Source: Promethearchaeota archaeon (GTDB taxonomy: Archaea; Asgardarchaeota; Heimdallarchaeia; Hodarchaeales; Hodarchaeaceae). Taken from it: 64,000 nucleotides of DNA. Below, in pieces: positions 245 to 3,223 of the stretch (positions are counted from its first letter, which is position 1; each line of letters starts with the position of its first letter). Under the pieces are notes generated by a model. The model had not been told where the DNA came from. It searched no databases and saw nothing but the letters and a program-made list of their open reading frames with translations. A program made the position numbers and the translations under genes. Location of the stretch: assembly GCA_048938105.1 (NCBI GenBank), contig JBHLMN010000016.1:1-64000 (forward strand), in the 5' to 3' direction.

Positions 245-562
245 CTTTTTTTGTGCAAAAACAGTAGAATTAATTTTAGAAACGGAAATTATTGTATTTC
301 ATCTCTTTTTTTTCATTCAATTGCTTTCTACTCATTATCCAATAATTATTTTTACATGAATTTATGAAAATAACTATGATTCTGAGAGCAAAATAATTAA
401 GTTGAAAGCAGAGTAGGCGTACCTTTGCTGATTTAATAAAATAGATAGTCATATAATTATTCTCATCCGAAAAAGCAGATTGAGACAACATAGTATCTAT
501 TTGGACTAAATATCTTGATTAGAATAGTAATCTACCTTTCAATCATATATAGGTGACACTCT

Positions 563-1432
563 GTGGACATTGATAAAGCAATTTCAGAAATTCAAGAAAA
601 ATTTGGAGTTGTCGGGCGAGAAAGTTCACTTCGGAAGCTCATATTAGGTAAAACAGCAGGAAAACATATTATCATAGAGGGTCCTGTTGGAGTGGGTAAA
701 ACAACTCTAGCTCATGCAGTAGCTGCATACTTCGACCAAGGCTTCATTCGTATAGATGGTGATGAACGTTATACTGAAAGCAAATTAGTTGGCCATTTTG
801 AACCTCCATTAGTTGTAGAAAAAGGATGGGTATGGGATGCCTTTGTTCCAGGTCCATTGACGCTGGCAATGAAAAATGGATCAATCCTGTTTATCAACGA
901 AGCCAATCGATTAATAGAGGGCACTCAAAATGTCTTACTTCCTTCCATGGATGAAGGATTACTTATTTTACCTAAGCTAGGCGTTATTAGGGCAAATGAT
1001 GGTTTTCTTGTTGTAGCAACACAGAATCCAGAGTCATATATTGGTACTACTGTCCTATCAGAGGCATTAAAAGACCGATTTGTCTGGATTAAATTAGAGT
1101 ATCAAGGTTATGAAGAAGAGCTCGATATTGTAGAACAGAAAGCAATTATTGGGACGGAAGATAGATTAATTTCAGAAACAGCCACAAAAATAACTAGAGC
1201 AACTCGCAACCACCCTGAAATACGACGGGGTTCCTCAATTCGTGGCGCAATTGATCTAGCAAAAATATTGAATCTAGTGAAGAGCTTAAATCTAGAAACT
1301 GTTTCTGAAATGTCTATTATGACTCTCGCTACTAAAATTGAACTAGAAGATGGGGTTGAGAGGCCCATCGAAGATATTATTCATGAGATAGTCGAAGCAA
1401 TTCTTTCAGGAGACGAAGACCGTTTTTTATAA
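563..1432 (+). CDS. MoxR/AAA_5-type AAA+ ATPase
   Basis: Walker A GPVGVGKT, Walker B-like LFINE, ATQNP sensor, ALKDRF arginine finger; SD AGGTGA before GTG. Confidence 0.9.
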   Translation: MDIDKAISEIQEKFGVVGRESSLRKLILGKTAGKHIIIEGPVGVGKTTLAHAVAAYFDQGFIRIDGDERYTESKLVGHFEPPLVVEKGWVWDAFVPGPLTLAMKNGSILFINEANRLIEGTQNVLLPSMDEGLLILPKLGVIRANDGFLVVATQNPESYIGTTVLSEALKDRFVWIKLEYQGYEEELDIVEQKAIIGTEDRLISETATKITRATRNHPEIRRGSSIRGAIDLAKILNLVKSLNLETVSEMSIMTLATKIELEDGVERPIEDIIHEIVEAILSGDEDRFL

Positions 1433-1459
1433 GTAAATCCCGGGAGACCTCTCGGGATT
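1423..1459 (+). promoter_or_regulatory. Putative -1 programmed ribosomal frameshift signal
   Basis: T TTT TTA heptamer (1423-1429) directly before the TAA stop, 6-nt spacer, 10-bp hairpin 1436-1459; the -1 frame is open into the VWA ORF. Confidence 0.8.
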
Positions 1460-1488
1460 ACAACAAAAATATTCGCCTCTTTGGTCGA

Positions 1489-2499
1489 TTGAAGTTGGAG
1501 GATCTTGCAGAAGCTGCTATTGCTGCAGGGGATACTCTCCCAAGACTAGACAAATTAGATCTTGCTAGCATTGAACGTTTAACTGAATCAGCCATTGAAC
1601 ATGAGAATCTTCCTGCATTGATGTCTCTAGCTAAAATCAATAAATATGCTGTTTCAAATACGTTAAACACTGATCGATTAGTCTCTTTAGGCCGTGTTGC
1701 TGGATCAGGGGGTATTTATACTCCTCGCCTCTATTTTGTCATGAGAGGTACCCTTGATCTTAAACGTAGAAAGATCTTGAAACGACTAACACGAACATCC
1801 ATATTAAAATTATCACTTCGAATTGCTTCAGAAGGCTTAAGAGGAGACTTACCCGTCCGAGGTGAATATCAACCTGAAAGCGATTTTGACTTAGATGCGA
1901 CCATGGATCAGTTATTGGAAAAATATCCAACTGGTATTCCCACTTTGAGGAGAAGTGATATCGTCGGTATTGAACGGCGTGAAAGGAAAAAGAATGGAGT
2001 ACTTATTCTTGATGCTAGTGGATCAATGATGGGGGAGCGGAATATTAATGCAGCTTTATCTGCTGCGGTTATGGCTTATTCAATGCGAAAAGATCAGTTT
2101 GGGGTCATTGCTTTTAATACGAAAGCTTTCTTGATTAAGGGAATCAAAGATGACCTTACAATAAAGGAAATTATGGATAAAATTTTAGATTTAGAAGCAG
2201 TGGGGTATACCAATATTGAAGATGGCTTAAGAATGGGGGCACTTCAATTACAGGGCTTAAAAACACGATTTAAATGGGCCATTTTACTAACTGATGGAGC
2301 CTATAATAAAGGGGATGACCCAAGGTACTTGTGTAGGAAATTTGAAAAGCTGCACATTATCAATCTCCCAGGAGGAAAGAAATGGGGAGAGCGTGTATGT
2401 AAAGATTTAGCAAGGCTTGGAGGTGGGCGATATGTTGTTGTTAGAAGTTACCATGAAGTTCCCAGGGCACTGATGAAGATTCTTAGAACTCCTTGGTGA
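1489..2499 (+). CDS. VWA (MIDAS) domain protein; probably also or mainly the C-terminal part of an AAA-VWA frameshift fusion
   Basis: DASGS MIDAS motif, GYTNI threonine, LLTDG aspartate; only a TTG start. Confidence 0.88.
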   Translation: MKLEDLAEAAIAAGDTLPRLDKLDLASIERLTESAIEHENLPALMSLAKINKYAVSNTLNTDRLVSLGRVAGSGGIYTPRLYFVMRGTLDLKRRKILKRLTRTSILKLSLRIASEGLRGDLPVRGEYQPESDFDLDATMDQLLEKYPTGIPTLRRSDIVGIERRERKKNGVLILDASGSMMGERNINAALSAAVMAYSMRKDQFGVIAFNTKAFLIKGIKDDLTIKEIMDKILDLEAVGYTNIEDGLRMGALQLQGLKTRFKWAILLTDGAYNKGDDPRYLCRKFEKLHIINLPGGKKWGERVCKDLARLGGGRYVVVRSYHEVPRALMKILRTPW

Positions 2500-3223
2500 G
2501 AACCTGTTGTAACCGATCGGGATAATTAGTGAGTATCCCATCCACTCCTAAATGCTTCACCCTTTTCATTTCATCGGGTTCATCAGCATAAAAGTAGAAC
2601 ACTCTAATGTCATTCTTATGGCATTTATTCAAAAAAGAAGGTTCAAGTGCTGATGGACGTATTTGAGCAGTTTTTAGATCTAACTCTTTCAACAACCTGA
2701 AATATTCATTCGGTGTTCGCTCCTTTTGCAATAATGCGTAATCAATATTTGGTTCTTTTTCTTGTAATCTGCTAATGTTTTCAATATATCTAGCTGTTAT
2801 TACAGTTTTATCTTCTATTTTGTATTTCTTAACTGTGTTGATGATCTCATTTTCAAACCAATCCGAGTTCTGGTCATAAAACTTCAATTCAATGTTATAT
2901 TGGATATTTGAGTATGATGATTTTTCTAACACCTCTGAGAGTGTGGGGATTTTCTCTCCTTTAAATTTTTGATCGAACCAGCTCCCTGCATCTAAAGACC
3001 TTAGATAATCAACTGTTAGGTCTGGTATCTTTCCTTTACCATTAGTTGTTCTTTCTATCCCATTACGATCATGGTATACAATGAGCTGAGAATCTTTAGA
3101 AGGTTGAACATCAAATTCTATCATGTCAGCAAAGATTATACCCTGTTCGAAACATGCAAGAGTATTTTCAGGAGCTAAACCTGCGCCTCCCCGATGAGCT
3201 ATGTTTAAGACCATTTTTATCAC
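2483..3223 (-). CDS. Glycerophosphodiester phosphodiesterase (GDPD)
   Basis: AHRGG, PENT, IEFDV, HD, NIELK and GILTNYP motifs. Confidence 0.92.
   Translation of the reverse strand: MIKMVLNIAHRGGAGLAPENTLACFEQGIIFADMIEFDVQPSKDSQLIVYHDRNGIERTTNGKGKIPDLTVDYLRSLDAGSWFDQKFKGEKIPTLSEVLEKSSYSNIQYNIELKFYDQNSDWFENEIINTVKKYKIEDKTVITARYIENISRLQEKEPNIDYALLQKERTPNEYFRLLKELDLKTAQIRPSALEPSFLNKCHKNDIRVFYFYADEPDEMKRVKHLGVDGILTNYPDRLQQVLTKEF

Follow-up and report, generated by a model that had tools for sequence, protein, structure and literature searches.

A putative -1 frameshift signal linking a MoxR-type AAA+ ATPase to a VWA domain in Asgard archaea

Introduction

A 64,000-nt stretch of Hodarchaeales DNA (contig JBHLMN010000016.1, positions 1 to 64,000; hereafter the window) carries near its start an ORF for a MoxR-type AAA+ ATPase, followed at once by one for a VWA protein. 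In databases each half is entered as a protein of its own. An initial annotation of the window proposed that ribosomes shift frame at the end of the ATPase ORF, making both a free ATPase and an ATPase-VWA fusion. Are these neighbouring genes, or one gene read two ways? The comparison of sequences presented here indicates that they are very probably one.

Frameshifting between AAA+ and VWA ORFs has a precedent in the fs-chlD genes of Mg and Co chelatases (PMC3711429; PMC9227772; reviewed in PMC5009743), and chelatase frameshift cassettes give 10-63% frameshifting in E. coli (PMC3711429). The documented chromosomal frameshifts of archaea are few, that of fucA1 having been tested and that of chelatase predicted (PMC8211752). 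The Sulfolobus fucA1 signal, a chromosomal -1 frameshift with a heptamer and a putative stem-loop, is confined to two strains (PMC8211752), whereas the signal described here is conserved across a phylum. A literature search, mostly outside subscription journals, found no published frameshift for Asgard or MoxR genes, and the present one is apparently unpublished.

Results

The upstream ORF (563..1432, + strand) starts at a GTG lying 6 nt beyond a presumptive Shine-Dalgarno sequence, AGGTGA (551..556, + strand), and its zero-frame product is a 289-residue protein that matches the AAA_5 and AAA_3 domains. It has the features of a single MoxR-type module: besides these matches and an arginine finger there is a Walker A motif, GPVGVGKT (680..703, + strand), whose columns are invariant in the ATPase alignment, and a Walker B variant, LFINE (887..901, + strand), in which Asn replaces the usual Asp and the catalytic Glu is retained (E113 invariant, N112 at least 90% conserved in the family alignment). 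Walker B reads hhhNE, not hhhDE, throughout this ATPase family. The best NCBIfam match is GvpN, far below cut-off, and the protein reaches the cut-off of no model for a named MoxR subfamily. Relatives at 87-96% identity are labelled mostly Hodarchaeota or Heimdallarchaeota.

Downstream, no stop interrupts the -1 frame between 1387 and 2499, and the conceptual fusion product is 645 residues long. The 356 codons of 1429..2499 (+ strand) are predicted by domain search and structure modelling to form a flexible linker, a helical domain and a VWA domain of NorD-like fold: the model of this half has a pLDDT of 88, and its top Foldseek matches are the NorD VWA domains of NorQD complexes. DxSxS of the MIDAS is encoded at 2011..2025 (+ strand), its Thr at 2209-2211 and its Asp at 2293-2295; D195, S197, S199 and D289 are invariant in the VWA alignment, and T261 is at least 90% conserved. 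The locus sets an ATPase of this type beside a VWA part whose MIDAS (DxSxS, T, D) is intact, the layout of a MoxR/VWA pair. Gene neighbours change from family to family and none points to a client; a glycerophosphodiester phosphodiesterase gene (2483-3223, minus strand), which overlaps the VWA stop convergently, is retained in 14 family loci only.

The two ORFs meet at a sequence with the attributes of a -1 programmed frameshift signal. The ATPase ORF ends CGT TTT TTA TAA, in which U_UUU_UUA (1423..1429, + strand) stands in the correct X XXY YYZ phase within the ORF overlap; the zero-frame stop TAA lies directly 3' of it (1430..1432, + strand), and a hairpin follows whose conserved core begins 8 nt after the site. 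Heptamer, -1 relationship and stem are kept at 17/17 close orthologous loci in other Hodarchaeales genomes. The heptamer is invariant in the 17-sequence alignment of the cassette, as is CGTTTTTTA, and a stop (TAA, TAG or TGA) occupies the position of 1430 in 16 of 18 family genomes and falls one codon later in 2. The slippery sequence at the stop and the -1 frame open into the VWA ORF, both pointed out in the initial annotation, are confirmed in the window and in 17 other genomes.

These genomes also bear on whether the break is real. It could be an assembly error or a pseudogene, a fused gene broken by loss of one base from a homopolymer; there is a T-run at the junction, and there are in-frame fusions among close relatives. 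However, the 17 other genomes are independent assemblies, two of them chromosome-level; the break is identical in 18 family genomes and recurs at this position throughout the phylum; the two halves are each intact and conserved; and the linker of the fused relatives is different and has no T-run. An indel, which had been named in advance as fatal to the frameshift proposal, is scarcely credible in an arrangement shared with 17 other Hodarchaeales genomes.

The hairpin needed revision. A stem of 10 bp after a spacer of 6 nt had been described, and this is present in the window genome (1436-1459; ten pairs, one of them G-U, forming part of the MFE fold), but the conserved core is a stem of 7 bp (1438-1444 with 1451-1457, thus 1438..1457, + strand) and its spacer is 8 nt. 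Six of the seven pairs form in 17/17 sequences and the seventh in 15; two of the ten pairs first described, 1437-1458 and 1445-1450, are lacking in most other sequences of the alignment. One pair covaries (A-U, G-U, G-C), with a covariation score not above shuffles in these 17 sequences. The alignment of Asgard orthologues proposed in the initial annotation thus bore out heptamer, stem and -1 frame in the window lineage, but showed only weak covariation of the hairpin. The fold of the whole 106-nt segment is not exceptional (z -1.38); that of the 49 nt 3' of the slip site is more stable than synonymous shuffles in 18/18 family genomes (mean z -3.4), control windows falling below -2 in 11 of 152 cases. 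Strict heptamers terminate 2 of the 44 long ORFs of the 64-kb window, and a strong hairpin is found in only one of these, the ATPase (-14.8 vs -4.5 kcal/mol). No Rfam family matched at the ATPase-VWA junction. The possibility that the hairpin is an intrinsic terminator was rejected, there being no terminator-like U-tail after it on either strand. RNAalifold draws a second helix in 17/17 sequences, between the slippery U-run (1422-1427) and a downstream purine-rich stretch (1465-1470); this may merely reflect the Lys-Asn codons there.

Synonymous sites distinguish selection on the RNA from selection on the protein. Over both ORFs in 14 sequences there are 263 four- or six-fold codons with an invariant amino acid. 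Four of them are invariant also as DNA—CGT 1421, TTA 1427, TCC 1438 and CGG 1453—and all four are among the five such codons of the cassette (hypergeometric 3e-8, the cassette interval being that chosen beforehand in the initial annotation). The slip-site R, F and L codons are frozen synonymously. By this measure the cassette signal is under RNA-level selection. Codons 1459-1488, upstream of the TTG that had been called as a weak VWA start, keep their amino acids and vary synonymously. The TTG itself (1489..1491, + strand) proves to be a conserved Leu codon, its counterparts in 18 genomes being CTC (6), TTA (5), TTG (4), CTT, CTA and ATG (1 each). The -1 frame is open and coding before the TTG, and there is no conserved VWA start; on this substitution pattern, coding sequence in the -1 frame begins at the slip site.

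Of 399 Asgard genomes, 258 have a match to the VWA half (E 1e-20 or better), usually in single copy. Our junction set comprised 113 loci from 26 Asgard families; one locus (L034, G307:C119) was excluded, its genome, of another family, being 11% contaminated and the junction on this contig identical to that of the Hodarchaeales locus L035. Of these loci, 99 have the VWA in the -1 frame, 11 have it in the +1 frame and 3 have it as a fusion, tallies drawn from related genomes and so overstating independence. Orthologues consisting of separate genes would have told against recoding, but a plain separate downstream VWA gene occurs at 0/113 loci; a few orthologues are in-frame fusions. Slip sites at the -1 loci vary in sequence but retain the heptamer pattern, among them G_GAU_UUU, U_UUU_UUA, U_UUU_UUC, A_AAU_UUU and G_GGU_UUU. 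A strict heptamer lies at most two codons from the stop in 63 of the 99 (ATPase-body background 1.2%), a relaxed one in 89 (background 1.9%).

All 11 loci of the +1 class (L074-L079, L115, L135, L140, L144, L145) have an in-phase TTT TTT CGN; among 29,698 codon positions elsewhere it occurs 3 times. On a quick tree, a single clade is rejected for seven +1 rows drawn from three families (AU p 5e-8). These UUU UUU CGN sites resemble the amalgavirus +1 motif UUU_CGN, a shift for which PA-X is a parallel. Two fused relatives belonging to the same family as +1 orthologues (L136, L138) keep the FFR peptide.

The variety of sites speaks to how the frame is changed. RNA polymerase might add a U in the T6 run and so bring some mRNAs into frame: the window does have six Ts in a row, and the poly-A sites of relatives could slip in transcription. 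Yet the commonest Asgard sites, G_GAU_UUU and A_AAU_UUU, have just four U, polymerase slippage usually needing longer runs, and all sites are in ribosomal phase by the stop, with structure downstream. We consider such transcriptional slippage highly improbable.

A further alternative keeps two genes and couples their translation: ribosomes terminating at 1430 would reinitiate at AUA 1429 or TTG 1489, with the hairpin tuning the coupling. The stop overlaps the AUA, in place of which L011, one of the relatives, has AUG; in Korarchaeota homologues an ATG soon follows the stop in frame; and 86 of 108 loci have a start-like codon of some kind (ATG, GTG or TTG) in the VWA frame ahead of the conserved region, so that some independent initiation may occur. 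These codons, however, are at unconserved positions, and the remaining 22 loci have none; AUA/AUG is forced by TTA plus the stop, and AGT replaces AUA in two relatives (L010, L016); and TTG 1489 varies among Leu codons. Coupling would also leave unexplained the frozen synonymous sites upstream of the stop, the phased heptamers of several sequences and the +1 class, and we think it very unlikely. A GAGG...ATG pattern in other Asgard loci was rejected as Shine-Dalgarno plus start, its ATG being out of the VWA frame; it is in that frame only in Korarchaeota. The reading that we favour, with a probability of about 0.9, is that ribosomes slip -1 on U_UUU_UUA to produce the 645-residue fusion beside the 289-residue ATPase, the pair of products put forward in the initial annotation and now strongly supported by comparative evidence.

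The predicted long product has natural counterparts in a single frame. Four fusions (P0001-P0004, 647-655 aa) are colinear with it, each half showing 61-66% identity, and a quick tree places them within or next to the Hodarchaeales clade; their linkers are different, with no slip site and no T-run. Such fusions, of the same length, support the fusion product and do not refute recoding. The model of one (pLDDT 90) has two folded modules and a disordered stretch, 289-311, within which the frameshift junction is predicted to fall. Among more distant organisms, the VWA frame is likewise -1 in Korarchaeota homologues; metagenomic homologues, many of them GC-rich and probably bacterial, are fused or are -1 at A-runs; and one fused homologue is from Anaerolineae. 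In distant homologues on Rhodococcus plasmids (L233:4910-4912, L238:3383-3385) the AAA and VWA parts share a frame, with CCC GGT TGA AGA GC between them; these two cases, with ~330 open codons after the stop, are candidates for stop readthrough.

Outside the window lineage the stimulator appears to be of another kind. In many other Asgard families the site is followed by GA, a stem-loop, a GAU bulge and GA, the first GA being 8 or 11 nt on. A kink-turn consists of a stem, a 3-nt bulge and tandem G.A pairs, and in the l7ae leader, which L7Ae binds, the bulge is GAU (PMC5539422); the element that follows the slip site in many Asgard families and in Korarchaeota fits this definition. Its spacing from the slip site is constant wherever it is found, in families f3, f5, f6, f8, f11-f13, f18-f21, f26 and f29 and in Korarchaeota (L234-L236), where the motif lies in another reading frame, a sign of selection on the RNA. 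The pattern occurs in 39 of 102 loci, vs 19.8 expected from synonymous shuffles, and without family f20 in 33, vs 11.6; in f20, 17/17 fit a kink-turn in the opposite orientation. With anchors placed by sequence alone, most positions are paired more often than in column shuffles (out of 53, for instance, 43 vs 23 and 37 vs 21). We hypothesize that L7Ae binds these elements. The window's own hairpin was rejected as a kink-turn (0/18 in the window family); the plain hairpin core of this family begins at the same offset as the kink-turn-like element.

Discussion

The mechanism that we propose is as follows. A single mRNA, initiated at GTG 563, would yield two proteins. Most ribosomes would terminate at 1430 and release the free 289-residue AAA+ subunit. 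The hairpin 8 nt downstream and the adjacent stop codon would slow a fraction of them, and these would slip one base back on U_UUU_UUA with tRNA-Phe and tRNA-Leu, enter the VWA frame and complete a 645-residue AAA-linker-helical-VWA chain with the junction DRF[L/F]ISKSR. Less firmly, short and long subunits may form mixed hexamers, each with about one tethered MIDAS adaptor, slip efficiency setting the number of MIDAS per ring; the analogy is with NorQ6-NorD1, in which there is one NorD per NorQ hexamer (PMC9976466). The fusion-bearing hexamer might remodel a client, as NorQ6-NorD1 does.

Two known kinds of system resemble this one. As in fs-chlD, AAA+ and VWA ORFs are joined by a frameshift that is mostly -1 and sometimes +1, short and long subunits result, fused homologues exist and archaea are among the hosts. 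Unlike fs-chlD, the ATPase is a 289-residue MoxR/GvpN-like module, and the slip sites are U-rich where those of fs-chlD are A_AAA_AAR. Membership of ChlD was rejected: TIGR02031 scores 28 bits against a cut-off of 499.55 and TIGR02442 25 against 779.45, and the window genome has a separate chlD-like gene, which falls far outside on a quick tree. Judged by these comparisons, the Asgard locus would work like fs-chlD without being a ChlD member, and belongs to a MoxR-type family. With NorQ/NorD and CbbQ/CbbO it shares a single AAA+ module and a MIDAS-bearing VWA partner (PMC9976466), NorD topping the structural matches of the VWA half. There, however, the genes are separate; the VWA part of the Asgard locus lacks a conserved start, and the shift would tether it to an ATPase subunit. 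Walker B has NE here vs DE, and no client gene is nearby.

Two more remote likenesses had been drawn in the initial annotation. A special link to midasin/Rea1 was not supported. The two share a related AAA clade and the combination of AAA ring and MIDAS, but midasin has six tandem AAA domains, a long linker and the MIDAS in one chain, against one AAA domain here. Its top rank among PDB sequence matches came from summing six domains; its best single domains score 58-64 bits, below bacterial MoxR 2r44 (89), NorQ (77) and CbbQ (70), and Rea1 MIDAS ranked below NorD in Foldseek. Nothing in these comparisons speaks for a specific ancestral relationship. The HIV-1 gag-pol signal has U_UUU_UUA and then, after about 8 nt, a stem-loop. 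This geometry is indeed found in the window lineage, but it is not a trait of the family, the plain hairpin being confined to this lineage; the present signal differs also in lying in a cellular archaeal gene, with a stop right after the site and a shorter stem. The resemblance is convergence, limited to the window lineage.

The distribution of signals allows a tentative history, which we regard as possible though doubtful: an ancient, phylum-wide recoding would set the AAA+/VWA subunit ratio, with an L7Ae-bound kink-turn as the ancestral stimulator that the Hodarchaeales lineage swapped for a plain HIV-like hairpin, other lineages turning independently to +1 slipping at UUU UUU CG or to full fusion. 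If true, the L7Ae-bound stimulator would be a case of protein-assisted frameshifting in archaea. With plain hairpin, kink-turn, +1 site and fusion all in one gene, nature supplies a set of signals on which frameshifting by archaeal ribosomes can be tested. The locus would also extend the design of one locus and two subunits from chelatases to MoxR/VWA machines, and suggests a general way of making a ring with a sub-stoichiometric tethered adaptor.

Other parts of the window genome show similar layouts. A second MoxR-VWA pair (L022, G000:C6, about 376.8-378.6 kb, minus strand; ATPase 34% identical) has its VWA frame at -1 in 13/13 family genomes (L022; L274-L285); its sites, A_AAA_AAA/C/U, lie close to the stop, and 12 of the 13 have a hairpin of the GCGGGA/UCCCGC type. 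The chlD-like gene (L245, G000:C4:151.1-153.2 kb, minus strand) is in two parts that overlap in the -1 frame at an A-run, as in published fs-chlD; the layout is repeated in two relatives (L262, L263), and the gene is fused in several other Asgard genomes. In the window itself, tRNA-Leu(CAG) at 2-88 is directly followed by a tRNA-like element at 108-244, for which ARAGORN and Rfam made no call; by eye, it has acceptor arms GCCGAGG/CCTCGGC, a CGA anticodon (Ser) and seemingly two introns, one in the anticodon loop and one in the T loop.
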